Positions 9,599 to 49,937 are shown, counted from the first letter of the stretch. The stretch is 64,000 nucleotides of DNA from Candidatus Woesearchaeota archaeon (GCA_964344555.1 CAYFNK010000003.1:9565-73564); one strand, 5' to 3'. A program made the numbers and translations. The notes: generated from the letters alone by a model not told the origin.

Positions 9599-10246
9599 TC
9601 ATTTTTTATTTGAAAATTTTCTTTCAAAATTAAGATACAAATCTTCCATTTTTTTAAGATTTGCTTGCACAGAATTAGATATTTTTTCTATTTTTGTTAT
9701 TTCTCCCTTGACTTGTTTATTTAATTTTACTAATGCTTCACTATCTTTGAATCTTTTTATTGTAGTTCTCATATCTTTCATTTGAGAAAATATCTCATCA
9801 ATCATCCCTCTAAGAGATTCATTCTTAGTTTCAATTTTGTCCAATCTAACATCGTATCTGGCAAAGCCTTTTACAACCTTCTTGGGATTCATTGCTTTAA
9901 CTAAATCAGATGCCTTTTCAGCCTCGGTTTCAATTTTTTTTAATTTCTTTTCTTTTTCAAAGAATAAAGACCTTAAACTACCAATTTGTTCAGAAATATT
10001 ATTTATCTTATCAGAATCAGCCTTTCTAAAATCCTTTAGTATCTCTACCTCTGCTTCGAGTTTTTCAATTACTGCCTGAATTTTAGAATCATCAGAAATA
10101 CTTTGTTTAGGTTCTTCTTTTACTTCCATAGGTTGAGCAGATTGTTTACTCATGGGAGAAACCTCTGGAGCCCCTTTACCTAGGCTTTTTACTCTTTCTA
10201 GAAATCCTCTTTTTTGTGGAGTTTCTTTCTTTTGTTTTTTTGCCAT
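9599..10246 (-). CDS. coiled-coil protein, hypothetical (start probably internal Met near 10153)
   Basis: 215 aa with a heptad-rich Lys/Glu sequence. The N-terminal 31 codons overlap the 3' end of the giant gene in another frame, so the likely start is MSKQSAQP. Confidence 0.45.
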   Translation of the reverse strand: MAKKQKKETPQKRGFLERVKSLGKGAPEVSPMSKQSAQPMEVKEEPKQSISDDSKIQAVIEKLEAEVEILKDFRKADSDKINNISEQIGSLRSLFFEKEKKLKKIETEAEKASDLVKAMNPKKVVKGFARYDVRLDKIETKNESLRGMIDEIFSQMKDMRTTIKRFKDSEALVKLNKQVKGEITKIEKISNSVQANLKKMEDLYLNFERKFSNKK

Positions 10247-13200
10247 TGTTTACTTTCTTAGTTTTTTTCTTTTTAAGTTTTTTCATAGTTTGTTTCTTTT
10301 TGGCTCTTTCTACTTCCTTAGCCATTTCTTCCTTTGCTTCTTTAGTGACTGGGATTAAATCTTTTGGAGCTTTCTTTATGTACTTTTTTCTCATAGATTT
10401 AGCTCTATCAAGTATTTCTTTAAGTTCTTTACTTGTGAAAGTTTCTACCTTCTTTCTTCCAATCTTTCTTCTATGTTTCTTAACAATTTTATCTAAATTA
10501 GGTTTCATACTTTCTAAATATAAGTCAACCATATTGAAATTTCCTTGACTTAGCTTTTCATCAATAAGTTTCAACTCAATTTCAACATCAAATACATCCA
10601 CTTTTGCTTTCTTCAATTGTGAAATCTTCCATCTGATATCATCTAAGGTTTTGTTGTATTTTGTATATTTATTAAGTTCCTCGGCAGGTAATCCAAATGT
10701 GTTGTGTTTTAGAGGTCTAAATGAAACAAAGTAAGGAAGTCCCTTATTGTATCCTGCGTTAACATACATTCCCGTACCAATTGCTTCCCTAATTACAGAT
10801 TGAGAATACTTAGAACCATATTTCATTCTTATTCTCTTAAGGTCATTTTCATATCTAGTTCTGAACTGTATCTCATTTCCAATATTTGCCTTAATATCGC
10901 CTATAAAATCGCTCAATACCTGACTAATCAGAACCAAACCTACGCCCCATTTTCTAAATTCTCTTGCTCCTCTTTCTAGTTGAATTAATCCTGCACCTGA
11001 GCCTCCAAACTTCGATAATAATCTGTGAACTTCGTCATAAACCATTAAAAGTTTTAGTTTTCCAGTTTCAGGCAAGTTTGCTCTGAACACTTGTTCAACA
11101 GTCGTAGTAACTAGGACATCAATTTCTTTAGGTTTCAAATCCTTAACGACAAATACAGTTATTTTCCCAGGTTTAATATGTTCCTTAATATCAATTTGTT
11201 CCTTTGGATCTGTTATTTTGTAGATATTTCCTTCGTAAGCTTTAGCGGATTTAGGAGACATTCCAAAAAATCTATATCTATCTAACATGTTTGTTTGAGT
11301 AGATTTTCTTAAGTATCCTGTCCATTGTCCAGTTGGATCAAAAACAATTACTGAAACTTTTTTGTCTAAAGCTTCTTCAACTACATCCATAGCACCAACT
11401 GTTTTTCCACTTCCAGTGGCTCCAGCAATCAAAGTATGAGTTTGTAATTTATCTAAACCTATGTAAGAATTAATTGGGGTTTCAGCGACCTTACCAACAA
11501 ATGCTGCTCTGTCTGCAGATCTAGGTATAGATTTAATATCTACTTTTCCCTTGTATCTTCTTGTTTTTTGCCTTACAAACTCTAAAGAGTAAAATCCTCC
11601 AACTAGCAATAAAGCAATTGAAATTAATAATAAGTAATACTTGAATTTGATACCTAAGAAGGTTGCATTCAATACAGATCTAATTACTTCAATCTGAGCC
11701 ATAGAAATTGTTCCTCTTCCTGTAACTCCTGAATGTATTGCTTTTCCTTTCACATAGTAAAATCCTTCGTCTAAGTCAGAAGGAGTGCTTAATGATAGTA
11801 ATTCAGTATAATCAAATAGAACTTCTACGGTATAATTATCTTCACTCAAAGGAGTTTCAGTATCTTCCAAGTCTAATAGTTCAAGATTTATATCTACGTT
11901 TTGGTTGTTTCCATTATTTGTTACTTGAGTTTCAATACTAATATCATTTCCTGCAGAAACTGAATCTTGAAGAGGATCTATGTCTAAACTTAACAGATTA
12001 TATTCTGAATTAAGTACTCTTATTTCTACAAGTACTTCTGAATAGATGTCTGCTCTTGTGAAACTTATTTTCCCTTCATATAATCCATTATCTTTATCTT
12101 CTGGAATAGCTATGTTTACAATTAAATCTGGATTTGTTGCTATCTCTATACTACTTGGAACAGTAATTAAATCTTGTATTTCTCCACTAACTTCAACATC
12201 CAAACTAGTTACATCTTCAGTAATTGAACTTATATGGATTAATTCGTAAGCTTCTTCCCCTGGGAATAATTCTTTTTCTATCTTGTTCAAACTAAAAATT
12301 AAGCTCTCAGATAATTGTTGTTGCGGTTGAGAACCTCCAGAGGATCCGTCTCCGCCACCCCCAGAAGGGCCGCTAGGCTGACTAGGAGGTTGTTCAGAAT
12401 AAGTATCTGCAAAGTCCGCTCCACAACTAGTTTCAGTTTCCCAAGATTCTTGATCACCATTTCCGCAAGTGTTTATTGATAGGAGATATGCAGAGAATTC
12501 ATCTCCTTCTAGATCTTCTTCCTCCAATGGAGGAACATATGAAAAAACTCCTTCTTCAGAATCATAGGAATATTCCTCGGAAATAATTTCTATACTTTCA
12601 AGATCATTGCAAGTTCTTTCACTATAGCTCCAGTCATGACAAACTACATAGTTCATATGTTCAGTTAACCACCCAACATATCCAATATACCAGTAAGGAG
12701 TATCTTCGTCAAAGAAAGTACCGTCCATATGTAATTCATTTATAGTCCCAAGATCGAAAATTTCAGACTCAACAACTACCCCATAAAGAGATATATAATT
12801 ATTAACTAATGATTCCGGAATAAATGTCCCAGAATAATCAAAGAAGTCTAATGAAAAGAAATTACTATGTTCCTCCAACTGACTAAGGTCTACATCATAA
12901 AATGTAAAGTCAACTATACCTTGATAATTAATATTTAAATCCCAAATAGAATTTCCAATTTCTGATATTGTAAGTGAGTTCTCATTTTCAGCAGTAGTTA
13001 TTGGGTCGCTACAAGAGTCAGTTCCAGGTAAACAAAACATAAGAGAAACTCCAGTCAACTCATTTCCTTGTGCATCAGTGAATTCCATTTCAATATTGTA
13101 AATAAGATCTATAACTAAAAATTCACTATGGTTCACTGCAAGATTTCCATAATAGTCAGAAGTACTAACTTCAACAGTATAAATCTCATTTGACTCTAGC

Positions 13201-16200
13201 TCTCCATTATCATATAATTCACCAACATTCAACGAACAAACAATTTCCGTGGTAAGGCCAACTAATTCGGAAGAGCAGTCGTCGATTTCAGTTACTTCAA
13301 CTTCATCTTTAATCAACATAAAAGTAGTTAATTCGGATAAGTCTGCCTCAACGTTATCCTCAATTTCCGTCCTGATTTCTAAATTAGAATCACCGAATCC
13401 AGGATCAACAGATTCTTCCATAATTATATTAATTGTAGGAGGATAGGTGTCTGCATAATTAATATATTCATAAGTATAAGAGTCAATAATATTATATTCT
13501 AAATCCCTTACAACTACTTCTAAACCTAAATCTTTCTGTTCAAGCAGAGCATCTATTTCAGGTAATACACAAATTCCTTCAGAAGTGATTTCACAATCCC
13601 CTATCTCTTCTTCTTCATCTAATACAGTTACACTGATAAGTTCAAAATTAGAATACTCTGCGTCTTCTAAAGTTGTTAATATTGTTAATTCGATTTCTTC
13701 TCCACCTCTAAGGTCCTGGTCTTCATCTAGGAGTACATCTTCAACATCAAAATCTACAACTGTAATATTATAAGAGAAAGGAATGGAATTTCCATTTTCA
13801 TCTTCTACGGTAAATTCTCCTGGGTAATTTCCTTCAATATTTCCAAGCCACTCCAGAGTTAGTTCTCCAACTGTATTAGCTTCTATTGTTATTTCAGAAT
13901 CTTCAAAGTTTTCATTTTCAATACTAAATCCTAACTCTTGCTCTGCAGTATTTTCTACAATAATCTTTCCAAGATTTAAGCTTTGATCTGGAGCAACGTA
14001 AAGGTCATTCAAATCAACATCCAATTCCGTGCTAAATTGAGCATTCCAGGGATTGACTATTAACTCCATTACTAGGGGTTGGACATTTTCGTCTTGATCA
14101 CTTACAATGATACTAAGATTCCAAACAACATTCATTTCTTGGTAAGTTTCAGTCAATGAAAATTGTATATTTGTGCTTCCGCCATGAGGTACAGTATACT
14201 CTCCCTCTACATCCTGTATATTTTCTGATATCCCAAAATCTCCTTCAAGTTCAAGGTCTAAGATAAGATCAACATTTCCAAGATTTTCTAGAACAATGTA
14301 TCCTATGTCTGATTCAAACAAATCAACGCTCTCTCCTAAGTTGTCACCCAGTACTTGCCAACTTATATTTGGAATTACTTCAATAGTTATTGGAATCTCT
14401 TCATAAATTTGATTTTCATCATCATAATCAAAACTCATTATAATTTCACTGATATAAGTTTTACCTTCATAATCTTCTGGAACAGTTATAGTTACCGTTA
14501 GGTCTTCGGTTCCTGATATCTCCACGTCTAGTTGTTCGGTTGATAAACTTACAAGATCTACAATCTCCTCGTATACGGATAAATCTAATTCGATATCGAT
14601 ATTACCTTTGTTTTCAATCGAAATAGTTTGTTCTTCCGTTTCAGAGTTGTTTAATTGGAAAGACAGCTCGGTTGGAGAGTAATTTACATTTAAAATGGGA
14701 TTTGGACTATATTGGAATGAAATCTCTTCTTCTGATTCAGAACCATCATTGTTTATCCAATTGTAAACTATTTTGAAAGTGTAGGGATTATCTGGAGGGG
14801 CAGGCTCGGTACCCTCCTCAACTTGAATAGAAATGTCATTAATTTGACAATCCAAACCATATTCTGCAGAACCACATTCTCCATCCGACGGAGAAATTTG
14901 ATTTAGAATATCCCCTACTTCGTACTCTATTTCATAAGCCCATCCTTCTCCATTATTTGTAAATATTAAATCTCCAGTTAATGTAAAATTATCGTTAAAC
15001 ACAAAATCAAAAGTTAAATCTATGTTTGTAGTAGGAGATTCTATGTATATTCCTCCAACTGTGGATATTGGGAGATCTATTGCATCGTAATATTGCCCAG
15101 GGACGGAACACTGTACATTTCCATCAGTTAAACCAAAATTATATAATTGCACTGCGCATCCTTCATTATTAATTGATTCACAAGTTTCATCTCCAAAATT
15201 GACAGTACAAATACTTCCATTAATATTATCTCCATCTAAATTTGTGTAAACTGGAGTTATTGTAACTTCGGTATATCCATTTCCATAAGATACATCAGGA
15301 GAAGGAATGCTTAATCTCATTTCTTCCCAAATAATAATCGAGTCGGAATAAGATGACGAACTATGTCCAATTTTATCACAATATAACTCATAGAAATATT
15401 CTCCTTGTGTATTAAAATTAGTTGAGTAGGAATAAAAACTTTCTTCCTCTGTCATAGAAACCCCTTCATCACCAATATTAATATGACAATCTGCATCTGA
15501 AATAAGTTCTTCACTAGTAGAGTATACTACGTTAAAAGTTACTTCGTTTCCAATATAATATATTTCTTGGAAGGAAGCTATGTCATAAATCAAAGAAGTA
15601 TTATAAGGAATTATCGTAAAACTTTCTTCTTCAAACAACCCACCTTCATAAGTACAAGACACAGAATATGTATAGTCTCCATCTCCATCCTCTAAAAATT
15701 GAGTAGAATACGAATACAATCCTTCTTCAAGATTTCCAGAGTCATTTATTATTTCATTTCCTTCACTATTTAGCACACTTAATTGGCAAGTTGTTCCGTT
15801 AAAACTTTGTCCGAAGTCAAGAATCGTTGCAGTAAATTGATGATTATCATCATAGTATTCCCCTTCATGAGAGATAGATAAGCCTATAACATACACACCA
15901 AGAGTAAAATCAATTATTCCCCCATATCCATCATCAACAGTAAAACTTAGATCATTCTGACCTACATCATATTCATCAACAATAAAAGTATAAACTCCTC
16001 CTTCTACAACATTATTTCCTTCGTCGTAGAAAGTAAGTGAATCTTCATCTACATCACTAACGTAATCTTCCAAATTGATATCGATACTATCAGTTTTAAC
16101 AGATACATATACGTCAACAGGACTAGCTACAGGTGCACTATTAACAACTTCTATTTGCTGACTTGCTTCAGAACAACCATAAGCATCACAAGCTTCACAA

Positions 16201-18059
16201 GACACAGTAATAATTTCATGAGAATAATTTACTAAAAGGGATGCCCATAAAGAAGGGGCAATACACATATTATCATCACAAGAATGTACCAATTCTTCAT
16301 CTTCATCAGTAAAATATATAGAAAGATTTATTAGATCATTCTCAGGATCCCCATTATCCGTACACTCTGCGTACCACGGATCAATTCCAACATAAATTTC
16401 TTCTTCAGAAAGGGTTAAAGTTGGAACATTTGGTGGTGTATTAATAATCTCAAGTTCATTGGAAATAACAGTTTCTCCTTCTTCCACAATACCTATAGGA
16501 GTAACAGCAACAGACCAAATGTCTTCAACTTGAGTTTCGCTACTTAGTAATGTATTGACCGGATTTTCATTCTCCCCTGACAAATATTCTTCATAAATCT
16601 GTTCTTCAGAAAGGACCTTATCAAATATCTTTACCTCATCAATATATCCTTTAAATGATGAATACTGGTTAAAGTTACAATTGTCCCCAACATATGAATA
16701 ATATTTTGAACCAATCCTTAGTTCAGTTGCGCTACTTGAAGAATTAATTTGTTCAATCTCGCAAGTTTTATCAAGACCACCATTTATATATATTTTAACT
16801 TTGTGATCTTCATAAGTAAGTGCAACATGAGTCCAATCTTCATTAGAAACTACTTCGTAAGAGTAGCATGTGCTGCTTCCTCCAGACCATACATCATAGA
16901 ATCCCATGAACTTAATTTTTCCATCTGTACCAAGGTATATTCTATACCCTTCGGAACAAATATCATCACTTTCGCAACATCCTCCACTAGATTTAAATCC
17001 ATTTACAAATATATTTCTAGTGCTCCCAGTATCTTCTGGGTATATCCAAGCTTCCAAAGTATAACTTCCATTAACAAGAAATCTTTCAGGATATCCAAGA
17101 GGGATTCCTATTTTTTGATAATTATTTTGTTCAGGGAAGTAGTAAGATCCACCAATTTTTCCAGAAGAATCCCAAGAAATAGAATCATGGTAAGTTATGT
17201 TTCTATAGTATGTAGAAAAATCTGATCCCCCCTCTACGTCCAAGGGGAGATTTGCTAATGCAATGGATTCACCATCAACTCTCCAATCAGTATTTATTGT
17301 TTGAGTATTTTCATTAGCTTCGTAAGTGACGGTAAGATTATCAAACACTCCATTATTTCCACTACTTGAACTAAGAACAACGTCAGAAACTTCAGGAGTA
17401 GTACTTCTTGTCTCAGTTTCCTCACTTTTTTCAGTAACTTTTTCTACAATTTCTTCTTTCTCAGGCTCATCAAAAACAGAAACAACATCAACAATAACAT
17501 CTTCAACTTTTCCAACTTCACTAGGAACAACAATTCTAGAATCACCGGGCTCAACTTCTTTAGTATAAGTTTCTTTCCCCTCAGAACCAATAACAGTAAT
17601 TTCCACACTAATAGAACTATCGAATCCACTAATAATGTCTACTCCAACTCCACGGCCACTAGAGCTATACTCATAACTAAGGTCCTTACCAGGCCCTAAC
17701 TGAACAACTTCATAATCTGGAACAAAAAATAAAGTCAAAAATCCAACTAAAGATAACATAAGTAAAGATAATGCCAACAAAAAGAAAGGACCATGCTTAA
17801 AGAAAGAAAAGTCAGATTCCTTGTGGGATAACCCTAAATCCTTAGCCTTCTTCTTAGCAACTTTCTTATCAGAACCTAAGTATAAAGTCTTAGTTCCGCC
17901 TTCAGAATTACGTACAGTATGATAATAATAATCTTTATTTTTTATTCTCTTTTTGTGCAAGTTAACCCACACCTCTCTTTGACTAAAATAACTTAAATTA
18001 TAATATATAAATCTTTTCAATACAAAAATATTTAAACAATCAAAATAAGAAAAAATCAT
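10176..18059 (-). CDS. Giant membrane-anchored surface protein (2627 aa): N-terminal signal anchor, LamG/ConA-like domain, long array of beta-sandwich adhesin-like repeats, C-terminal TM helix, cytoplasmic HerA/FtsK-like (DUF87-type) P-loop ATPase, poly-Lys tail
   Basis: Single uninterrupted 7.9 kb ORF. LamG-like region (WTHVALTYEDHKVKIYINGG...YIDEVKIF). TM segment YYLLLISIALLLVGGFYSL. Walker A LIAGATGSGKTV and VFDPTGQW. Walker B LLMVYDEVHRL. The start is uncertain because it sits back-to-back with the scpA start. Confidence 0.8.
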   Translation of the reverse strand: MIFSYFDCLNIFVLKRFIYYNLSYFSQREVWVNLHKKRIKNKDYYYHTVRNSEGGTKTLYLGSDKKVAKKKAKDLGLSHKESDFSFFKHGPFFLLALSLLMLSLVGFLTLFFVPDYEVVQLGPGKDLSYEYSSSGRGVGVDIISGFDSSISVEITVIGSEGKETYTKEVEPGDSRIVVPSEVGKVEDVIVDVVSVFDEPEKEEIVEKVTEKSEETETRSTTPEVSDVVLSSSSGNNGVFDNLTVTYEANENTQTINTDWRVDGESIALANLPLDVEGGSDFSTYYRNITYHDSISWDSSGKIGGSYYFPEQNNYQKIGIPLGYPERFLVNGSYTLEAWIYPEDTGSTRNIFVNGFKSSGGCCESDDICSEGYRIYLGTDGKIKFMGFYDVWSGGSSTCYSYEVVSNEDWTHVALTYEDHKVKIYINGGLDKTCEIEQINSSSSATELRIGSKYYSYVGDNCNFNQYSSFKGYIDEVKIFDKVLSEEQIYEEYLSGENENPVNTLLSSETQVEDIWSVAVTPIGIVEEGETVISNELEIINTPPNVPTLTLSEEEIYVGIDPWYAECTDNGDPENDLINLSIYFTDEDEELVHSCDDNMCIAPSLWASLLVNYSHEIITVSCEACDAYGCSEASQQIEVVNSAPVASPVDVYVSVKTDSIDINLEDYVSDVDEDSLTFYDEGNNVVEGGVYTFIVDEYDVGQNDLSFTVDDGYGGIIDFTLGVYVIGLSISHEGEYYDDNHQFTATILDFGQSFNGTTCQLSVLNSEGNEIINDSGNLEEGLYSYSTQFLEDGDGDYTYSVSCTYEGGLFEEESFTIIPYNTSLIYDIASFQEIYYIGNEVTFNVVYSTSEELISDADCHINIGDEGVSMTEEESFYSYSTNFNTQGEYFYELYCDKIGHSSSSYSDSIIIWEEMRLSIPSPDVSYGNGYTEVTITPVYTNLDGDNINGSICTVNFGDETCESINNEGCAVQLYNFGLTDGNVQCSVPGQYYDAIDLPISTVGGIYIESPTTNIDLTFDFVFNDNFTLTGDLIFTNNGEGWAYEIEYEVGDILNQISPSDGECGSAEYGLDCQINDISIQVEEGTEPAPPDNPYTFKIVYNWINNDGSESEEEISFQYSPNPILNVNYSPTELSFQLNNSETEEQTISIENKGNIDIELDLSVYEEIVDLVSLSTEQLDVEISGTEDLTVTITVPEDYEGKTYISEIIMSFDYDDENQIYEEIPITIEVIPNISWQVLGDNLGESVDLFESDIGYIVLENLGNVDLILDLELEGDFGISENIQDVEGEYTVPHGGSTNIQFSLTETYQEMNVVWNLSIIVSDQDENVQPLVMELIVNPWNAQFSTELDVDLNDLYVAPDQSLNLGKIIVENTAEQELGFSIENENFEDSEITIEANTVGELTLEWLGNIEGNYPGEFTVEDENGNSIPFSYNITVVDFDVEDVLLDEDQDLRGGEEIELTILTTLEDAEYSNFELISVTVLDEEEEIGDCEITSEGICVLPEIDALLEQKDLGLEVVVRDLEYNIIDSYTYEYINYADTYPPTINIIMEESVDPGFGDSNLEIRTEIEDNVEADLSELTTFMLIKDEVEVTEIDDCSSELVGLTTEIVCSLNVGELYDNGELESNEIYTVEVSTSDYYGNLAVNHSEFLVIDLIYNIEMEFTDAQGNELTGVSLMFCLPGTDSCSDPITTAENENSLTISEIGNSIWDLNINYQGIVDFTFYDVDLSQLEEHSNFFSLDFFDYSGTFIPESLVNNYISLYGVVVESEIFDLGTINELHMDGTFFDEDTPYWYIGYVGWLTEHMNYVVCHDWSYSERTCNDLESIEIISEEYSYDSEEGVFSYVPPLEEEDLEGDEFSAYLLSINTCGNGDQESWETETSCGADFADTYSEQPPSQPSGPSGGGGDGSSGGSQPQQQLSESLIFSLNKIEKELFPGEEAYELIHISSITEDVTSLDVEVSGEIQDLITVPSSIEIATNPDLIVNIAIPEDKDNGLYEGKISFTRADIYSEVLVEIRVLNSEYNLLSLDIDPLQDSVSAGNDISIETQVTNNGNNQNVDINLELLDLEDTETPLSEDNYTVEVLFDYTELLSLSTPSDLDEGFYYVKGKAIHSGVTGRGTISMAQIEVIRSVLNATFLGIKFKYYLLLISIALLLVGGFYSLEFVRQKTRRYKGKVDIKSIPRSADRAAFVGKVAETPINSYIGLDKLQTHTLIAGATGSGKTVGAMDVVEEALDKKVSVIVFDPTGQWTGYLRKSTQTNMLDRYRFFGMSPKSAKAYEGNIYKITDPKEQIDIKEHIKPGKITVFVVKDLKPKEIDVLVTTTVEQVFRANLPETGKLKLLMVYDEVHRLLSKFGGSGAGLIQLERGAREFRKWGVGLVLISQVLSDFIGDIKANIGNEIQFRTRYENDLKRIRMKYGSKYSQSVIREAIGTGMYVNAGYNKGLPYFVSFRPLKHNTFGLPAEELNKYTKYNKTLDDIRWKISQLKKAKVDVFDVEIELKLIDEKLSQGNFNMVDLYLESMKPNLDKIVKKHRRKIGRKKVETFTSKELKEILDRAKSMRKKYIKKAPKDLIPVTKEAKEEMAKEVERAKKKQTMKKLKKKKTKKVNNGKKTKERNSTKKRISRKSKKPR

Positions 18060-18792
18060 GCAAGATCAAATACTAGACATGCTCCTAAAAAAGGATGAAT
18101 TAACATGGCAAGACATTCTTTATGACCTAATTAAAACAGAAAGGATGGATCCCTGGAACATAGACGTGTCTCAACTATCAAAAAAATATCTAGACATAGT
18201 TAGAAAACTGCAAGAAACTAATTTCTTTGTATCTGGAAAGGTAATTCTAGCATCAGCAATTCTACTTAAGATAAAATCAAACAAACTTTTAACAGAAAAT
18301 ATAGCAAATTTTGACAGCCAACTATATCATAAAGAAGATGATGAAGATTACACTGAACAATTAGAAGATCAGGATTTTGAACAAGGATCACAACCAAGAT
18401 TAACTATTAAAACACCAATAGCTAGAAAGAGAAGAGTTTCTTTAAATGATCTAGTAGATGCATTAGAAAAAGCCCTAGAAGTAGATACTAGAAGAAAAGT
18501 AAGAAGACAAAGATATGAATATCTGGATGAAGATTTTGCAATGCCAGCTAAAAAAGTAGATGTAGGACAAAAAATAAAAGAAGTGTACTCAAAAGTAACA
18601 GAATATTTCAAGATTAAACAAAGCAACCTAACTTTTACACAACTTCTACCTTCAAGTTCAAAAGAAGATAAAGTATTTACATTCATACCTTTACTACACT
18701 TAGAAAATCAAAAAAAAGTAGATATGCATCAGAAGAATTCATTCGATGAAATATATATTTCACTAAAAAAACAAAAGCTTAAAAATAATTAA
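18058..18792 (+). CDS. scpA: Segregation and condensation protein A (kleisin ScpA)
   Basis: 244 aa. N-terminal ...WNIDVSQLSKKYLDIV...FFVSGKVILASAILLKIKSNKLL matches the ScpA N-terminal kleisin motif. Confidence 0.7.
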   Translation: MQDQILDMLLKKDELTWQDILYDLIKTERMDPWNIDVSQLSKKYLDIVRKLQETNFFVSGKVILASAILLKIKSNKLLTENIANFDSQLYHKEDDEDYTEQLEDQDFEQGSQPRLTIKTPIARKRRVSLNDLVDALEKALEVDTRRKVRRQRYEYLDEDFAMPAKKVDVGQKIKEVYSKVTEYFKIKQSNLTFTQLLPSSSKEDKVFTFIPLLHLENQKKVDMHQKNSFDEIYISLKKQKLKNN

Positions 18793-30524: not shown

Positions 30525-30609
30525 AAAAAAAATAGTATAAACTAGTATAAAAAATTAATTAAAAAAAATAAAAATTTTCCAAAAGGAAAATCATAAGCAA
30601 GCACAACTG

Positions 30610-33515
<2,906 letters not shown>

Positions 33516-33633
33516 AACAGTAAAGTAAGTAATATACTTACGTTAAGTGCTTGCCTATGCATGATCATATTATAAAATAAGATCCTTCATCCAGAAACTT
33601 AGTTTTTGAATTGCACAATTCCTTATGGAAAAA

Positions 33634-33704
33634 TGGACCCACCGGGAATCGAACCCGGGCCTGGGCGTTGCAAACGCCCTGTTCTACCACTAGACTATGG
33701 GCCC
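33634..33704 (-). tRNA. tRNA-Ala (TGC) in the 16S-23S spacer
   Basis: Reverse complement GGGCCCATAGTCTAGTGG...GGGCGTTTGCAACGCCC...GGTTCGATTCCCGGTGGGTCCA. Confidence 0.85.
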
Positions 33705-33774
33705 AAAAGTAAACATAGTCAAAAATGCAATCGATAGAATTTGTCTCATATTTAATATTATTATAAAATAATAT

Positions 33775-35244
33775 AGGAGGTGATCCATCCGCAGGTTCCC
33801 CTACGGATACCTTGTGACGACTTAACCCACCTCACTGAACTCTGGTTCGAATCAATCAAAAAATTAATCCTCACCAAAACCCTGCTCGGTTGGCTTGACG
33901 GGCAGTGTGTGCAAGGCTCGGGGACGTGTTCACCGGACTGTGTTGAAATCCGATTACTAGGAATTCCATCGTCATGGGGGCGAGTTACAGCCCTCAATCT
34001 GAACTAAGATAGGGTTTAGAGGCTTAGCTTCTCCTCTCGGAGTTGCATCCCGTTGTCCCTACCATTGTTGCGCGCGTGTAGCCCAGCAGATTCGGGGCAT
34101 ACAGACCTACCGTTGCCCAAGCCTTCCTCCTTGTTTCCAAGGCAGTCCTCATATTGTGCTCATTCCTTCCGGAGAAGATGCTAGCAAATATGAGCATGGG
34201 TCTCGTTCGTTTTACGACTTAACGTAACACCTTACGGCACGAACTGACGGCGGCCATGCACCACCTCTCGGCTTGTCAGGTAAAACCTTCAATCTGACCT
34301 TCATTCTGCCGTCGCTGCTGGTGAGATTTTCTGCGTATAGTTAGATTAAACCGCACGCCGCACTCCTTGTAGCGAGCCCCCGCCAATTCCTTTAAGTTTC
34401 GGTCTTGCGACTATACTTCCCAGGCGGTGAGCTTAACATCTTCACTTAAGCGCTGCACATCCACGAAGAAAATGCAACACTCAGCTCACAGCGTTTACAG
34501 CTAGGACTACTCGGGTATCTAATCCGTTTTGCTCCCCTAGCCTTCGTTCCTGACCGTCGAATCCGTTCTGGATAGATGCCTTCGCCATCGGTGGTCTCCT
34601 AAGGATTATAGCATTTTACCGCTCCCCTTAGAATACCTCTATCCCCTCCCGGTTCCAAGTTTGACAGTTTTTCTTGCACGTTGATCAGTTAGGCTGAACA
34701 ATTTCACAAGAAAGTTATCAAACCGGCTACGAACGCTTTAGGCCCAATAAACATGGTTACCACTTGTGGCGCTGGTGTTACCGCGGCGGCTGGCACCAGT
34801 CTTTCCCACCACTTATTCTCCAAGCTTTTTACACTTGGCAAAAGCCTATGCAATACATAAGCACTCGGGATACCCTTATCACGCTTTCGCGCATTGTAAA
34901 GTTTCCGTGACTGCTGCACCCCTTAGGGCTAGGACCAGTATCTCAGTGTCCTTCTTGAGGCTAAGACTCTCATCTCCCCTACTGATCGTCGGCTTGGTGA
35001 GCCATTACCTCACCAACAACCTAATCAGCCGCCGACTCATCCTTAGGCCTTACGTTTCAAAGAAAGAGCTTTCCAGCACCAATCTTCTATTTGGATTTAG
35101 CCTCAGTTTCCCGAGGTTATTCCAAACCTAAGGGCAGATTATCGACGTGTTACTAAGCCTTTCGCCGGTGTCCGAAGACCCCTGAACTTGCATGTCTAAT
35201 TCGTATCCCAATAGCAGTAACCTCCCGCAGGATCAACGGGAATT
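33775..35244 (-). rRNA. rrs: 16S ribosomal RNA
   Basis: The reverse complement starts with AATTCCCGTTGATCCTGCGGGAGG. It contains CTGGTGCCAGCCGCCGCGGTAA and ends ...GGATCACCTCCT. Confidence 0.9.
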
Positions 35245-35540
35245 AAAAAAATTAGTCGCAAAAAAAATAAAAGAATAGAGACTCACTCTATCAAGTTTTG
35301 CTTTGACTATGCCTACCTCATACAAGATAATTCTATCATGTATTCACAAAAACATCAAAAATTGAAGAAAATCTTCAAGAGATGCGCATCAAAATGGTGA
35401 AATAAGTTGTTTATAAATATTGCTATCTATTCTTACGTTTTCTTTTCTCTTTATTCATCTTTTTTCTTTGCCATTTCCATCTCATTTGGCCTTTCTTCTT
35501 CCAACGTCTTGAATTTCTTTTCATATTTATCTTTCACCTA

Positions 35541-35615
35541 TGCTCCTGCCGGGATTTGAACCCGGGTTTCTGCCTCGAAAGGGCAGCGTCCTGGACCGGA
35601 CTAGACTACAGAAGC
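35541..35615 (-). tRNA. tRNA-Glu (TTC)
   Basis: Reverse complement GCTTCTGTAGTCTAGTCCGG...CTGCCCTTTCGAGGCAG...GGTTCAAATCCCGGCAGGAGCA. Confidence 0.85.
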
Positions 35616-35667
35616 GATAAAACTCTTGGGTCTTAATCCATTTATAAAATTATTGCTAATTTAGATA

Positions 35668-35785
35668 TGGGTCTGGGCGGATTTGAACCGCCGATCTCTG
35701 GTGTTCTTAGATTTTTGGAGTTAAAATTTGTACCAAAAACGGTCATATAAGACCAGTGCTTTAAACCAGACTAAGCCACAGACCC
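35668..35785 (-). tRNA. Intron-containing tRNA, most likely tRNA-Ile (anticodon TAT); intron of about 42 nt after position 37
   Basis: Reverse complement: acceptor GGGTCTG, D-arm TGGCTTAGTCTGGTTTAAAGCA, anticodon stem CTGGT with loop CTTATA, then an intron (tgaccgtttttggtacaaattttaactccaaaaatctaagaa), then ACCAG, T-arm GGCGGTTCAAATCCGCC and CAGACCCA. Confidence 0.7.
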
Positions 35786-43616: not shown

Positions 43617-46600
43617 TTAACAAGAACTCAAACAAGTTTCCCAATTGTCTTCTAAATAACTTATTCCTTCCTCTCTATTCATATTTTTTAAGGATCCAGA
43701 AGCTTCATTTACTGAATCTGCATACCAAAAAGAATAATAATTTTCATCATTAAGGATTTCCCAATTAGTCCAAAATCCAAACGCCTGTTCTAACCTTCTC
43801 TCCCATTTATTTGATCCATCCCCATCAAATCTAAATTGCACATCTTGGGCAAGAGCAGTACAATCAAAATTAGTACAATATTCTAAACTTATATCTTGTT
43901 GAGTTTCATTTCCAATTTCAAAATCATCTGAATCTCCAGAACTTGTTTCTTCAAAATCTTCATTTGATTCTTCTTCAACAGATTCTTCTTCTTCTTCAGT
44001 TTCAGATTCATATTTACAGGCCTCATAAATTTCATTAATTTCTATATTTTTATAATCTCCAGAGTACTTTTTTTCACCAAGATAGTAAACAAAGAGTTCA
44101 TCTTCATATGCAGGACCTTTTAAAACCAAGATCATTTCCCTTATTCCTTTTTCAAATTTCAAAGACCTATCTATCGATTCTTCATTTATTGAGATTAATC
44201 CTTCGCATAAGTCTGTTATTGCTTCATCCATTTCACTTAAAAAATTGCACTTCTTTTGAGTTATTTCTCTAAATTTATAGAAATGTTCTAATCTTACACC
44301 ATCTCCTTCCGCAAGTAAGGTTTCACTAGTCTTAATTGTCCATAAATTCTTTTCAGCATTGAATCTGAATAGCCAATTAATATCAAAACCATCTTCCTCA
44401 TATTCCATTATACAATTCATTGGCCTATCTTCCCCATCACACGAGGTTAAAACATCTTCATAACTAATATGTATGTGTTCATCATCCCCCTTCAAGTCTT
44501 TCTTCTTAACTATAATATAATCGTCATTTCCTTCATGATCTTCTCCAGACCTAGGGTCATAATTTGAATATTCTATAATTCTTTTAAGTCCATTCGAAAA
44601 ACTAGACTTTCTACCCCCGTCTCTCAAATCACTTATCAATCTAGAGTATATATCTTCTAAAAAGTTACCAGTTCTGTTATCAATATCTTTATAGTTTTTA
44701 TCATATTTTTCCTTCCATTTCCATTCATTACCTATGAACTTAAACATAATATTAACAATCCTATTTTTGGAGTCTTCTTCATATTCTATTTCACAAAGAG
44801 TATCGGGATCTTCTTCATCAGTGATTATAGTTCCATCTTCATCAGTAATAGTTACATTATCAATATCAACTTTTTCTTCCACAGGATAGAAAACATAAGT
44901 ATCTCCAATTACATAATATGCGTCATATTTTGGACCATTAGATTCAGAGAATTCAATAACATCTCTTAATTCAAGTATCCCAAGCTTAACCTCCAATTCA
45001 TCAACTTCATCTTGGCTAACTTGTAGGTCATACTTTTCAATTATCTCTTGAATTAGTTTATTTGCATCTTCTTCATTTTTCTTTATTAAATTAATTGCTT
45101 CTAAAATTTCACTATTTAAGTAATTACTGACCACATCTTTAGAATCTTCACCATGTAAATTCAAACTATCTCTATCCAAATAACAATCTCCTTGCCAAAG
45201 CCCATATTCGTCTTCTCCACAAGTTCCAACTTTTACCCACTTTTCACCACTTCCATCAGGGTCTCCAGTATTGGAACATCTCCTAATCACTCCAGTTTGT
45301 AATAATCCAACTTCAGAAGAAGTAGGGATGCTTCCTAGATTAGGAGTAGTTCTAGGATATTCTGGAACACAATCGCTAGTTCCATTAATATCTCTCTGAG
45401 CCTCAGATTTAACAAGTTCGTCATTCAAGTAATTAACACTAAATGCACTAGTAACTTTTCCAAAATTACAATGAGGAACTCCGTCAAGATCCACACATAG
45501 TTCATCAAATCCAGGCTTGGCAACAAGAGTGAAACTCTTATCAACATACTCTCCAGCCTTCAAGAATCTAGCTCCAGCAAAAACAACATTGCTGTCAAGT
45601 GCACTCTGTATCTCTCCAAGAGAATTCTTCAAATAAACATTATATCTAACATCTCTATCTCTTCCAGAATAAATATGATAATAAACTCTGTATACTGATT
45701 TTCCTCCTTCTACATTAGTATATTCTAATTCATCAACCCATGCAGTAAACTGAGGAGGGCTTGTAGGGTCAGTTATTTGACTTAAGAAATCTCCACCAGT
45801 AGGAACTTTTCCACGAATTGCAGCCTTACAGATTTGTGAACCAAACTCTTCACTACTTCTTTGATTAAATGCAGAAAACGAACTTGTTGCATATTCATTT
45901 GCAAAGTAATCTACACTATCTCCAAGGTTATTGAAAGCATCCTTGAAATTAGTAGGGGCATATGCATCTCCTCCATCAAATCTATTGCTAATTGCCCCAA
46001 CGACTAAATCACTAATCTTTCCAACTGCATCAGTAAGAGCTAAAGCTTCTCTCCATAACATTTCACAAGCATAAATTCCAGTTATTTCATTACAAACTCC
46101 AACATATTCTCCGCCAGTTTTTGCTTTTTGTAAACAATCTTGATATCCTAGATATCCGGTTCTTATGTTATCCAGTCCAGCATGAACTCCAGTTAAACAA
46201 ATAGGTGGAACCCACATATCTCCTCCAAGAGCTACAGAGTTAGGAATTCCTAACATTACACTACCAATTATACCTGTAGAAATAACATCGCTAACTTGCC
46301 ACTTTCCTCCAAGATCAAATCTAGATGCAGGACACATTACAGGATCACAAACATTGAATAAAATCTGACAATCTTTTGCACTCATATAAGATTGACAACT
46401 CCCTCCAGCAAGAGCCTTATCAACTGCATTTTGGAAAGTCTTCATAACAAATTTATTTCCATCTAGATTTACTGTACTTCCTCCTTTGTAATCCTTTTCT
46501 AATGCTTTTTGATCTAGTCTCTTGTAGTATCTTTCCAATTCTTCATGCCTCAATGGATAAAAATCCTCAAACTCATTTTTATTCAATACAACTAAATCAT

Positions 46601-49600
46601 CATTAAGAGTTTCATAAACATTGTAATCAATTAATCCATCAGAACCAACATTAACTATAGAAAATCCTTCAACCTCTCCAAACTGATCAAAATGAGTTAT
46701 AACATAATTCGCATGGTCGCTATACTTGAAGATTCCTGATCGCGCATAGGGATAAGAGAATATCCACAATTTATTATCTTTTAAAGAAATACTAGGGTTT
46801 TCACTAAACTCCTTATTGTATTCTCCTACTTCAACGGTTCTTACAGCATAAATCGTTCCATTTGTATCATTATAGAACGTATCTCCTTTCACAGTTAGAG
46901 GACTTCCCTCTTCATAATCTATACTTTCAACTTTTATTTTTTCTCCACCTGCATAGACATAATGCTCTTCATTTTCTTCTAGCACTTTATCTTTTCTTAT
47001 TGCTTCTTTTCCGGCAGGTAACACATTTTCCTTTAAGAATTCAATTCTGAAATCATCTCCTTCATAGTCACTAGCAGTAGATTTCTCTTCTTCTTCAAAT
47101 ACAGAGGAGATTATCTCACTAACTTTTTCTTTAAACTTAGTATCATTTTTGTCTAGTTCATTAATTTTATTTGCTATCAATTCATAATCATCTTTCTTTG
47201 AAACATCAAACAAAGACTGTTTTTTTATTGCATATGCTTCAAGATCCGTTTCTTTTAACAACAAAAGCTCAGATATATCTTCCGCAGAAACATCTCCAGT
47301 AAATTCATTAGTTTTTAATTGAGAATCTAATAATTCTTTTTCAGTTCTATTTAACAAACTATTTTTTATATACTCTACGGATTCATTGTTTCCAAATTTT
47401 TTTTTGTCAAAAGTTTTAAAAAATCTTTTCTGATTTTGTATTCCTTTATCATATTTTTCGATATAATCTCCTATATCCTCTTTTTCTAACTCTTTATGTT
47501 TCAAACAATTATTTACTTTTTCTTGTATGTCCTTTCCTTCATATCTGTCAGTTTCTTCAGATAATTCGCCAGCACAAACTTCAGTATAATGTTTAATGGC
47601 TGCCTTTCTTGGCTGAATTGTTTTAAGATTTTTCAAAACCAATGCAGAATAAGTTGCTATACATGTTGTTTTCCAGCCTTTGATTAATTTACCCATGCTA
47701 TCAAGAACCTTATCCATTTTCTCAATGGTACTTGCAGTCTTCTCTATTTTCTTATCAATCTCTTCAGGAGTCCATTGTATCAATCTTTTTTCTACAGGCA
47801 AACTTATTGTAAAATCAGAAGAGCCGTACGCCAAACCAGAACCAGGTAATATACTAATTATGGCAGCTTTTTCAAAATTAATTCTTTGAACTTTTATTTT
47901 TGTGTCACCTACATAATTAATTCCAACTGTCAATTCTTTGTCTTCTTCAATATTACTTGGTGAAGTTTTAACTACAACTTTTTCCTTACTTATGCTCTTA
48001 ACTTTCCAGTCATAATCTCTTCCGCCAGGACCTTCAACATCTTTAACTAAAGTATCTCCTATAACATATCTTTTTTCACCAGAAGAAATAGCAATAGTTT
48101 CAAAATCTTCATATTTACTTTTTTTACTATTTACTTTTTCAACATAATCTACATCTGCACCAGATTCACAACCCCAGCCATTATAGGCCCTAATTGCAGC
48201 ATCCCATTCCTTATACTCTCCATATTTTGAATAAGAAGAAATACAATTATTTACGAGTTGTTTGAAATCCCCAATTGAATATTCCTGACTAGATGTAACT
48301 CCGTTCTTATATGAATTATATTTTTGTTTCAATAATTTTGCACCACAGTCAATATTATTATTTACATCTAAGATCTCATTTTCAGTATAGCCACAATCTT
48401 CCCAAGAAACTATTTGCATAACTCCTATTGCTCCAGAACTACTTTTAGTAATGTCATTTTCACCACATTCAAAACTTCCATCTTTACAATGTTTAAAATT
48501 ACTTTCCTGTTCAGCAATAGCTAATAATATATCAATTGGAATATTCCTTGATTCTGATTCTAGCGCAATCAAATTTTGTAGTTCATCTTCTCCACTAATC
48601 TGTTGTTGAGGTTCTTCTCCCTCAATTATTGCAGTAAAATAAGTCTCTTCATGAATTTCTTCAATATCGCTTAAGAAAATAGTTACATCATCTATAAATA
48701 CAGAAGGAATATCTATTTTATCCCTTAAAGATATAATTTTATCTAATACATAGGGCTTATCTGCCAGATATTCTTCACTAATTTTCTCATAATATTCTAA
48801 TCTAATTTTATGTGCTCCAAGTTCTTCATAGGCCTCTGCAATTCTGAGATATGCTTCGTCTCTATCTTTAACATTCTCTGCATAATCCAGAGATAATTTA
48901 TAATCTACAATTCCACTACAAACTAATTGAGTTTTTGTAGCAGTTTCTAGTTCTTCAATCAGAAAGTCTTCATCTAAATGAGGAATATTTTCACAAGGAT
49001 CTTCCAGAACTACAGATTTACTTCCGGAAAGTTCAACTTTATCTCCCTCTTCACTTTCAAAAATTATACTATCAAAAGTTATTTCTTTAACAACCCATGA
49101 ACTACCTATAAAGGGCTTCATTCCCTTAACAACAGTAGTCCTAACAACCTCTCCTTCTTTTTCGACAATTAGTTTTGCATTTGTTTGAGGAGTAAGAACA
49201 TCCTTAAGTTTGACTCTCATCTGATTTGCAAATAAACTAGGTGCTCCCCTAAGATGCGTTTGATATTCTTTTCCTTCTTTTAATTCAAAATTAGATATAG
49301 TTTGTAAGGAACCATCATAAAGTTCAATTTTTGCACTATTCTTATCAATGTCTAATATTCTCACATATCCCCTATTTGACCAGAATGCCCCACTAGTAGG
49401 ATCTCTCAAGAATGAACCTTCTTCTTCAGGATACAAGAAAAGATCCTGTTGACCAAAAAGTCCAAATTTAGAAACTCCATCAAATCTAAATTTAGCGGTA
49501 ACATCAAGTTCAATTTCTTCAGGAATGTCCTCTTCCCTTTCCATCTTCCTAAGATTAACTATGAGATACCCAAGATCTACTTCACCTTTAGAATTAACTC

Positions 49601-49937
49601 TTATTTTATTCCCCCTAGGGAATATTGGATTATTTATTCTGGCAAACTCATGGCCTTCTTTAAGTTGAACAGTAAAACTTTTTATCCCTATTCCTCCAAA
49701 GAAAGGAGCAATATCAGGAGAATCTTCTCCAAATAATAAAGAACCTAAGGTAAATCCTCTAAGGAATACTGTAACCGGAAAATCTCTTGCCTTAAGATAG
49801 TCGGAACTTATACTCATTGGCTCAACGTGATCTACGGATACAGTTATAACTTCTCCAAGATTATTTGGGTCTTCAGCAGAATAAGTAGAACTAACTAATA
49901 AGATCATACAAATCACCAATATCCCGCCCTTTTTCAT
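43617..49937 (-). CDS. Giant secreted protein (2106 aa) containing a lytic transglycosylase (SLT, GH23-like) domain
   Basis: Signal peptide MKKGGILVICMILLVSSTYSA. SLT motifs LLAIAEQESNF...GAIGVMQIV...AYNGWG. A later Cys-rich/hydrophobic region and acidic C-terminal repeats. Confidence 0.8.
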   Translation of the reverse strand: MKKGGILVICMILLVSSTYSAEDPNNLGEVITVSVDHVEPMSISSDYLKARDFPVTVFLRGFTLGSLLFGEDSPDIAPFFGGIGIKSFTVQLKEGHEFARINNPIFPRGNKIRVNSKGEVDLGYLIVNLRKMEREEDIPEEIELDVTAKFRFDGVSKFGLFGQQDLFLYPEEEGSFLRDPTSGAFWSNRGYVRILDIDKNSAKIELYDGSLQTISNFELKEGKEYQTHLRGAPSLFANQMRVKLKDVLTPQTNAKLIVEKEGEVVRTTVVKGMKPFIGSSWVVKEITFDSIIFESEEGDKVELSGSKSVVLEDPCENIPHLDEDFLIEELETATKTQLVCSGIVDYKLSLDYAENVKDRDEAYLRIAEAYEELGAHKIRLEYYEKISEEYLADKPYVLDKIISLRDKIDIPSVFIDDVTIFLSDIEEIHEETYFTAIIEGEEPQQQISGEDELQNLIALESESRNIPIDILLAIAEQESNFKHCKDGSFECGENDITKSSSGAIGVMQIVSWEDCGYTENEILDVNNNIDCGAKLLKQKYNSYKNGVTSSQEYSIGDFKQLVNNCISSYSKYGEYKEWDAAIRAYNGWGCESGADVDYVEKVNSKKSKYEDFETIAISSGEKRYVIGDTLVKDVEGPGGRDYDWKVKSISKEKVVVKTSPSNIEEDKELTVGINYVGDTKIKVQRINFEKAAIISILPGSGLAYGSSDFTISLPVEKRLIQWTPEEIDKKIEKTASTIEKMDKVLDSMGKLIKGWKTTCIATYSALVLKNLKTIQPRKAAIKHYTEVCAGELSEETDRYEGKDIQEKVNNCLKHKELEKEDIGDYIEKYDKGIQNQKRFFKTFDKKKFGNNESVEYIKNSLLNRTEKELLDSQLKTNEFTGDVSAEDISELLLLKETDLEAYAIKKQSLFDVSKKDDYELIANKINELDKNDTKFKEKVSEIISSVFEEEEKSTASDYEGDDFRIEFLKENVLPAGKEAIRKDKVLEENEEHYVYAGGEKIKVESIDYEEGSPLTVKGDTFYNDTNGTIYAVRTVEVGEYNKEFSENPSISLKDNKLWIFSYPYARSGIFKYSDHANYVITHFDQFGEVEGFSIVNVGSDGLIDYNVYETLNDDLVVLNKNEFEDFYPLRHEELERYYKRLDQKALEKDYKGGSTVNLDGNKFVMKTFQNAVDKALAGGSCQSYMSAKDCQILFNVCDPVMCPASRFDLGGKWQVSDVISTGIIGSVMLGIPNSVALGGDMWVPPICLTGVHAGLDNIRTGYLGYQDCLQKAKTGGEYVGVCNEITGIYACEMLWREALALTDAVGKISDLVVGAISNRFDGGDAYAPTNFKDAFNNLGDSVDYFANEYATSSFSAFNQRSSEEFGSQICKAAIRGKVPTGGDFLSQITDPTSPPQFTAWVDELEYTNVEGGKSVYRVYYHIYSGRDRDVRYNVYLKNSLGEIQSALDSNVVFAGARFLKAGEYVDKSFTLVAKPGFDELCVDLDGVPHCNFGKVTSAFSVNYLNDELVKSEAQRDINGTSDCVPEYPRTTPNLGSIPTSSEVGLLQTGVIRRCSNTGDPDGSGEKWVKVGTCGEDEYGLWQGDCYLDRDSLNLHGEDSKDVVSNYLNSEILEAINLIKKNEEDANKLIQEIIEKYDLQVSQDEVDELEVKLGILELRDVIEFSESNGPKYDAYYVIGDTYVFYPVEEKVDIDNVTITDEDGTIITDEEDPDTLCEIEYEEDSKNRIVNIMFKFIGNEWKWKEKYDKNYKDIDNRTGNFLEDIYSRLISDLRDGGRKSSFSNGLKRIIEYSNYDPRSGEDHEGNDDYIIVKKKDLKGDDEHIHISYEDVLTSCDGEDRPMNCIMEYEEDGFDINWLFRFNAEKNLWTIKTSETLLAEGDGVRLEHFYKFREITQKKCNFLSEMDEAITDLCEGLISINEESIDRSLKFEKGIREMILVLKGPAYEDELFVYYLGEKKYSGDYKNIEINEIYEACKYESETEEEEESVEEESNEDFEETSSGDSDDFEIGNETQQDISLEYCTNFDCTALAQDVQFRFDGDGSNKWERRLEQAFGFWTNWEILNDENYYSFWYADSVNEASGSLKNMNREEGISYLEDNWETCLSSC

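Follow-up and report, generated by a model that had tools for sequence, protein, structure and literature searches.

The SPEARE proteins were named in Nanohaloarchaeota, where they reach 8,553 aa and are mostly extracytoplasmic; they contain at least one laminin-G domain and a transmembrane (TM) helix toward the C-terminus, and their cytoplasmic region, the most conserved part, gives matches to type III restriction enzymes (Hamm et al. 2019, PMC6642349). Their expression in culture was demonstrated by proteomics, and relatives were reported in Woese-, Aenigm- and Micrarchaeota and in Altiarchaeales (PMC6642349). When the proteins were re-analysed, no endonuclease was found; the region was read instead as a VirB4/TraG-like ATPase with a coiled coil behind it, and the proteins were proposed to act as a ‘straw’ for type IV-like secretion (Reva et al. 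2023, PMC10266531). Here we analyze a giant gene carried on the minus strand of a 64,000-nt stretch of DNA from a Candidatus Woesearchaeota archaeon (GCA_964344555.1 CAYFNK010000003.1:9565-73564), hereafter called the window. Its product very probably belongs to this published family of DPANN giant surface proteins, to which it adds a new member of smaller size, encoded in a non-halophilic DPANN genome. A first-pass annotation of the window had presented the architecture as undescribed; this was wrong, since the protein shows every published SPEARE feature and the architecture itself is already in the literature (PMC6642349; re-analysis PMC10266531).

Comparison with the known SPEAREs revealed a common plan. 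The window protein is very long and mostly extracytoplasmic behind an N-terminal export signal, with ~2,030 of its ~2,600 aa lying between two helices (residues are numbered throughout from the maximal 2627-codon open reading frame, ORF). The acidic ectodomain, made of adhesion-type beta domains, includes a laminin-G domain (PF13385, aa 329-488), and a single predicted C-terminal-side TM helix (aa 2141-2159) would leave the C-terminus in the cytoplasm. The conserved cytoplasmic P-loop domain gives ResIII, DUF87 and HerA_C matches, adopts a HerA/VirB4 fold and ends in helices. Its ATPase is 53-56% identical over ~390 aa to giant ORFs from Nanohaloarchaea/Nanohalarchaeota metagenome-assembled genomes (MAGs; loci L005, L026, L049 and L054), a comparison made with MAG ORFs, among which the type proteins NAR1_1133 and AOV94740.1 do not figure. 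The L026 ORF is complete at 3,530 aa, and L054 is a 9.4-kb Guaymas contig that matches the entry ‘9 kbp, deep sea hydrothermal vent sediments’ in the list of Hamm et al. At ~2,600 aa and in a low-GC, non-halophilic DPANN genome, the window protein is smaller than NAR1_1133 of Ca. Nanohaloarchaeum antarcticus (5,998 aa), the proteins of Ca. Nanopetramus SG9 (up to 8,553 aa) and SVXNc_0300 and BNXNv_0298 (9,409 and 8,880 aa, respectively). No protease, toxin-like or WD40 regions were detected in it, its N-terminus consists of a long basic segment and an anchor helix instead of a short signal peptide, and the downstream gene encodes a coiled-coil protein, whereas a VirB4/TraG ATPase was reported at this place for two cultured nanohaloarchaea.

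The cytoplasmic domain contains a RecA-fold ATPase of the HerA clade (10686..11522, minus strand like all features of the giant protein given below; aa 2180-2458). Its motifs comprise a Walker A, GATGSGKT (11400..11423, aa 2213-2220), the VFDPTGQW segment with its DPTGQW core (11322..11345, aa 2239-2246), a Walker B, LLMVYDEVHRL (11019..11051, aa 2337-2347), and the sensor ISQ, here ISQV (10917..10928, aa 2378-2381). Behind it come a C-terminal helical domain conserved in the family (10500..10685, aa 2459-2520; helices 340-399 of the model) and a Lys/Arg-rich tail (10179..10499, aa 2521-2627, pI 10.8) whose sequence is not conserved. Across 91 homologues there is no variation at the Walker A Lys, at the Arg, Glu, Arg and Lys of REFRKWG or at the Ser-Gln of ISQ, and the Walker B Asp-Glu is kept in at least 90% of them. 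The first-pass annotation had thus correctly placed a P-loop NTPase of the HerA/VirB4/FtsK class with its Walker A, VFDPTGQW and Walker B motifs, and the catalytic Lys, Asp and Glu that it had left to a closer alignment are all present and conserved; the tail is basic as it stated, but measures ~107 aa and not ~120.

Pfam searches with the C-terminal part returned the DUF87/HerA central domain (E 2.6e-9) and HerA_C (1.6e-8), then ResIII (1.3e-5, aa 2203-2349) and TrwB_AAD_bind (1.7e-5). When the family profile was compared with PDB sequences, HerA-type chains, YjgR included, were the sole matches at E <= 1e-3, with no match to VirB4, TrwB or FtsK at this threshold. In the structural comparison, the values obtained were 26.0 for Sulfolobus HerA (4d2i), 24.1 for the DptH/DndH C-domain (7es4), 23.1 for VirB4 (4ag5), 18-22 for further HerA proteins (9c1m and others), 19.0 for TrwB (1e9r), 17.2 for FtsK (2ius) and 17.1 for EccC (4nh0). 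In the model, only ~50 residues with one beta-hairpin separate the second TM helix (TM2) from the P-loop domain. The HAS beta-barrel of HerA is absent between TM2 and the P-loop strand; the VirB4 N-terminal domain PF03135 (CagE_TrbE_VirB) gave no Pfam match and would find no room there; and no nuclease domain is present, the HerA-like fold and the helices accounting for the whole cytoplasmic domain. Having the RecA-like core with HerA-type motifs but no HAS barrel, VirB4 N-terminal domain or nuclease domain, the cytoplasmic domain is therefore a HerA-clade member of the FtsK-HerA superfamily, predicted to be active. Within the window, no second copy of the ATPase or of the ectodomain was found.

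Where HerA of the HerA-NurA system (4d2i) has its HAS barrel, the window protein has a TM helix; it is membrane-anchored with an extracellular part, no NurA, Mre11 or Rad50 genes lie nearby, and it scores 26 bits against the NCBIfam HerA equivalogs, for which the cut-off is 800. CedB and CedD resemble it as archaeal TM-anchored HerA/VirB4-like ATPases of cell-cell contacts, required for DNA import between contacting Sulfolobales cells (PMC11868833). The NCBIfam CedD model matches the window protein weakly (E 4.5e-8, aa 2189-2265), at 32.2 bits against a cut-off of 600, so that the equivalog score is not reached. Unlike the window protein, the Ced proteins have a VirB4-like N-terminal domain and no ectodomain, and work with the multi-TM proteins CedA/CedE and with pili, neither of which was found beside the giant gene. 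EccC/EssC of type VII secretion and TrwB/VirD4 are more distant in both structure and sequence: EccC has multiple ATPase domains and TrwB an all-alpha domain, neither carries a giant ectodomain, and these proteins are encoded in operons with channel components. The best single-sequence PDB match (E 3e-8) was E. coli YjgR/DUF853 (PDB 11kk), which likewise has its P-loop near the N-terminus and no HAS barrel, and whose Pfam family HerA_C (formerly DUF853) matches the window protein; YjgR, however, is a soluble bacterial protein without TM helix or ectodomain.

The ATPase family proved to be large. At least 558 loci were found in GTDB genomes, scanned at one genome per species, and 80 loci were fetched with up to 10 kb of flanking sequence; an exhaustive search yielded 1,095 cluster representatives at E <= 1e-3, of which 356 at E <= 1e-30. 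Family members range from 400 to 6,253 aa, with a median of 1,468 aa (119 measured among the best 150 representatives), and the ATPase is always C-terminal. In the fetched loci, the ORFs ending in the ATPase fell into three size classes (~780 aa, ~1,300 aa and 2,400 to >4,000 aa), with many of the longest extending past the 10-kb flank. In 115 of the 119 representatives, Walker A is preceded by a TM helix at a distance of at most 130 aa. Homologue searches gave >150 DPANN proteins of 40-60% identity, with fragments and short forms among the matches listed, the nearest ATPase relatives coming from Woese-, Pace- and Nanoarchaeota MAGs.

When conservation was plotted along the window protein, aa ~1930-2550 proved common to most loci and aa 114-1900 almost unique, the ectodomains of other members giving only sporadic weak matches to this variable part. 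Family-wide conservation starts just past a Gly/Ser/Pro/Gln linker (12315..12395, aa 1889-1915) that joins the variable part to the conserved core. This core consists of two Ig-like domains, the TM helix, the ATPase and the helical end, the distal parts being variable. On its N-terminal side each lineage bears its own fast-evolving ectodomain, which in the window protein measures ~1,800 aa and includes the laminin-G domain. One close relative, with 87% identity in the ATPase, has swapped the entire distal part and has no counterpart to this laminin-G-bearing portion, and short members reduced to TM helix and ATPase also exist (P0018, 402 aa). Homologues of 366-417 aa without TM helix or ectodomain, 44-51% identical (P0045, P0086 and P0093), two of which sit on contigs of 1.2-1.3 Mb, represent soluble forms of the ATPase. 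At four loci (L015, L029, L034 and L063), a ~780-aa member is directly followed by a 1,500-1,750-aa paralogue and then by a coiled-coil gene; the family therefore also occurs as tandem paralogues within one genome.

A gene for a soluble coiled-coil protein follows the giant gene on the same strand (9599..10153, minus strand, 184 aa as called; maximal ORF to 10246), starting 22 nt past the giant-gene stop. A homologue of this partner lies directly downstream and on the same strand in 47 of the 67 loci with enough sequence, the window locus included, and behind a tandem second paralogue in 4 further loci. Long family forms are usually co-transcribed with such a protein. Its conserved part, which includes a SEQIGELR motif, spans ~160 residues. 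The protein matched no family in Pfam or NCBIfam; nothing beyond generic coiled-coil matches came from PADLOC or from a PDB profile search, the only weak matches being to SMC/Rad50 coiled coils. The gene is mentioned neither by Hamm et al. 2019 (PMC6642349) nor by Reva et al. 2023 (PMC10266531). The other neighbors of the giant gene in the window are housekeeping genes (GyrA/B, ScpA, HisRS, MinD, Rpo7 and S24e); neither the HerA operon partners NurA and Mre11/Rad50 nor a defence effector was found near it. An anti-phage defence role was rejected in view of this context and of a PADLOC search that returned only generic, weak HerA matches at superfamily level.

The giant gene itself is an uninterrupted minus-strand ORF (10176..18059) of 2627 codons and a stop, as the first-pass annotation had read it, although the protein is shorter than the 2627 aa it had assumed. 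Were translation to begin at the ATG at 18059, its start would overlap that of the divergent ScpA gene (18058); in addition, the first codons of the maximal ORF contain a TATA-like TTTATATA (18011-18004). For these two reasons a GTG at 17972 is the more likely start (10176..17972, 2598 aa), in agreement with public gene calls of 2597-2598 aa for the same protein; a TTG at 17960, placed 9 nt after GAGGTG, is the alternative (10176..17960, 2594 aa). The giant protein is thus ~2594-2598 aa long, and the first 29-33 codons of the maximal ORF, which hold the TATA-like box, are probably a non-coding promoter and leader. The maximal ScpA ORF (18058..18792, plus strand) stands back to back with the giant ORF, the two starts overlapping by 2 nt. 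GC content is uniform along the giant gene and ~31% in the window, which is archaeal, with archaeal 16S and 23S rRNA genes and an archaeal RNase P RNA.

In a hydropathy scan, the giant protein showed two hydrophobic segments and no others, at aa 92-113 and at aa 2141-2159. The first (TM1, 17721..17786, Kyte-Doolittle peak 2.54) follows a basic, putatively cytoplasmic N-terminal segment (17787..17972, aa 30-91, pI 9.95) containing KDYYYHTVRNSEGGTKTLYLG, and is predicted to act as a signal-anchor or uncleaved signal sequence. If it remains uncleaved, the ectodomain would be a loop anchored at both ends. None of the N-termini of other family members showed the KDYYYHTVRNSEGGTKTLYLG motif; these proteins have ordinary short signal peptides in place of this segment. 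The second (TM2, 11583..11639) is followed by the basic EFVRQKTRRYKGK. Between them, the ectodomain (aa 114-2140, ~2,030 aa) has a pI of 4.05, 32 Cys and 19 N-X-S/T sequons, whereas the 62 N-terminal residues and the 468 C-terminal residues, where the basic RQKTRRYKGK follows TM2, have a pI of ~10 and no Cys. An acidic, Cys-bearing middle between basic, Cys-free ends fits an in-out-in topology, as judged from composition.

The variable acidic part of the ectodomain (12399..17720, aa 114-1887) is beta-rich and holds the 32 Cys. It includes the laminin-G/ConA-like lectin domain (16596..17075, aa 329-488; Pfam PF13385, Laminin_G_3, E 3.9e-23). Self-comparison gave no off-diagonal BLAST match at E <= 10, so that no internal sequence repeats are detectable and the ectodomain is a chain of dissimilar beta-rich domains. 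The first-pass annotation was therefore sound on the basic N-terminal segment with its anchor-like helix, on the LamG/ConA-like domain, on the second TM helix near the C-terminus and on the scattered Cys, but its repeats are not found at the sequence level. The conserved membrane-proximal module (11655..12317, aa 1915-2135), which comprises the last two domains of the ectodomain, the two covered by modelling, forms two Ig-like beta-sandwiches (predicted local distance difference test, pLDDT, 90); a fold search with it returned generic Ig-like sandwich neighbors and nothing more specific.

To describe strain-level variation, the window was compared over 12 kb with two independent assemblies of the same gene order. 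All 24 nucleotide differences fell in the giant gene, and 23 of them in codons 287-460 (16680..17201), which correspond to the laminin-G domain and its N-terminal flank. The differences in this hot spot are essentially all nonsynonymous, with a frequency per nonsynonymous site (pN) of 0.034-0.046 against a frequency per synonymous site (pS) of ~0.009, that is, a pN/pS of ~4-5. The remainder of the gene shows at most one change in ~1,520 synonymous and 5,750 nonsynonymous sites (~7,270), and GyrA, GyrB and HisRS are identical in all assemblies. Such a concentration, 19 of 20 variable codons within 174 of 2,598, has a binomial P of ~1e-21. The excess of nonsynonymous changes fits a recognition surface under diversifying selection, and the hot spot, taken with the close relative that lacks the distal part, therefore indicates that specificity is determined by the distal end, the part of the protein that changes fast. 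What tempers this reading is the sample, which consists of only seven near-identical sequences with biallelic sites; the variable sites form a mosaic among these seven, part of which could be the assembler's consensus of two co-existing alleles. A diversity-generating retroelement was considered as the cause and is unlikely because the 64-kb window contains no second copy of the region that could serve as template repeat, no reverse transcriptase was found among its larger ORFs scanned, and the variable sites have two alleles each and also occur outside AAY codons; a distant template is possible.

From these elements we tentatively propose a mechanism, in itself somewhat short of probable, in which a host-binding adhesin sits on a hexameric ATPase ring that drives polymer movement at the contact site. 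The laminin-G-bearing part would bind a glycan or a protein on the surface of the partner cell. Like its structural relatives, the ATPase would form a ring beneath the membrane and gather six ectodomains at the contact site; ATP hydrolysis would then drive a polymer through or along the resulting surface complex. By analogy with CedB and CedD of Sulfolobales, the most likely substrate would be nucleic acid taken up from the partner, and the coiled-coil protein might serve as a cytoplasmic adaptor or regulator. Oligomeric state, binding, substrate and transport direction are all points that we infer. The ATP-driven transfer at a symbiont-host contact suggested by the first-pass annotation is the same idea as the published SPEARE hypotheses. 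SPEARE identity combined with the proposed mechanism is, taken as a whole, the best explanation of the locus, and one that we hold to be probable by a small measure.

Several observations weigh against polymer transport. The main argument is that a single TM helix per subunit, or two with the N-terminal anchor, is too few for a DNA or protein channel: six, at most twelve, TM helices cannot form one. No multi-TM channel protein is conserved within ~4 kb of the gene in 74 loci; type IV secretion, Ced and pilus genes are likewise missing from the conserved neighbors over the same distance in these loci, and no such component lies near the giant gene in the window. The short ~780-aa family members mostly lack the partner gene, and the basic tail, a possible DNA binder, is not conserved in the family. 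The absence of a conserved channel partner would suit a purely structural or mechanical role, in which the ATPase ring, serving as anchor or as platform for assembly, would oligomerise, insert, tension or remodel the adhesin without transporting anything. Joint conservation of the core with the Ig-like stalk base points the same way, as does a partner that is a cytoskeleton-like coiled coil with weak matches to SMC/Rad50 coiled coils only. Several defence-system HerA proteins serve as scaffolds and regulators of a bound effector, and structures of defence-system HerA proteins are among the ATPase matches. We nevertheless consider this role unlikely: the strict conservation of the catalytic motifs over a very wide radiation argues for real work, and the characterised membrane-bound relatives (FtsK, TrwB/VirD4, VirB4, EccC and CedB/D) are all parts of transport machines.

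The proposal of Reva et al. that the giant protein, with a VirB4/TraG-type ATPase, forms a type IV secretion-like ‘straw’ channelling protein effectors into the host finds an echo in the weak Pfam TrwB_AAD_bind match (1.7e-5), in weak NCBIfam TraC/TraD matches and in the next gene of two cultured nanohaloarchaea, reported as a VirB4/TraG ATPase with PF03135 (PMC10266531). It appears improbable for the present family, whose profile matches only HerA-type PDB sequences and whose TM-to-P-loop gap of ~50 aa leaves the VirB4 N-terminal domain absent. In addition, BLAST detected no second diverged ATPase, at its level of sensitivity, in the fetched flanks (at most 10 kb on each side) of the 80 loci, and the next gene in the nanohaloarchaeal loci L026, L049, L051, L054 and L056 is the coiled-coil partner. 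No VirB6-, VirB3- or VirB8-like or pilin genes occur within ~10 kb of the giant gene in the window, and a chain of Ig-like domains is no conduit. The original interpretation of Hamm et al., a type III restriction endonuclease degrading imported DNA below an ectodomain with a serine protease, draws on the same type of match as that obtained here with ResIII (E 1.3e-5, aa 2203-2349; PMC6642349). Only the generic P-loop/helicase part is covered by this match, whose score is lower than those of DUF87 and HerA_C, no protease family was matched in the giant protein by Pfam or NCBIfam, and the HerA-like fold and helices fill the cytoplasmic domain without a nuclease domain. We therefore reject this very improbable interpretation, the conclusion that Reva et al. 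also reached for the nanohaloarchaeal proteins (PMC10266531). Members made of TM helix and ATPase only, such as P0018 (402 aa), could evoke an artificial joining of an adhesin gene to a separate TM-ATPase gene, either by chimeric assembly, against which the first-pass annotation had cautioned, or by read-through. Such a joining can practically be dismissed: the same protein, 2597-2598 aa long and at least 99% identical, was recovered from six independent assemblies (ENA, Logan, NCBI), with contigs of up to 237 kb, the two assemblies aligned over 12 kb share the gene context, the junction of ectodomain, TM helix and ATPase is conserved in >70 loci of other DPANN lineages, and GC is uniform across the gene.

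Returning to the SPEARE-type adhesin coupled to a HerA-like motor, a broader proposal, which we regard as doubtful, is that the core and its coiled-coil partner constitute a DPANN-wide cell-to-cell transfer machine, unlike the type IV, type VII and Ced systems in composition. Were this true, DNA or protein would be moved between symbiont and host, and a fast-diversifying lectin tip would set the host range; in the one natural population sampled, variation is confined to the lectin domain. How DPANN archaea, unable to make many building blocks, draw material from their hosts is an open question, for which SPEARE-type proteins are the most conspicuous candidate. To the published description the present analysis adds a HerA-like ATPase that is neither a nuclease nor a canonical VirB4, a previously unremarked partner gene and a family far larger than published, with hundreds of species and members of 400 to >6,000 aa built around a small invariant core. 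Work on the few DPANN-host pairs that can be cultivated thereby gains concrete targets.

Elsewhere in the window, a second giant ORF (43617..49937, minus strand, 2106 aa) shows, at aa 460-586, the domain of a lytic transglycosylase (SLT; E 1.7e-8). Such a murein-type hydrolase, encoded by an archaeon, may hint that its partner or prey is a bacterium. This ORF is directly preceded by a 657-aa ORF without family match (49934..51907, minus strand), and a 312-aa ORF beside it (52295..53233, plus strand), with weak Mutator-transposase and integrase-core matches, may be the remnant of a mobile element. Finally, an rRNA operon comprising the 16S, a tRNA and the 23S (30608..35785, minus strand) has a GC content of ~43% against 31% for the genome, and its tRNA match (35668..35785) spans 118 nt, which suggests that this tRNA holds an intron.

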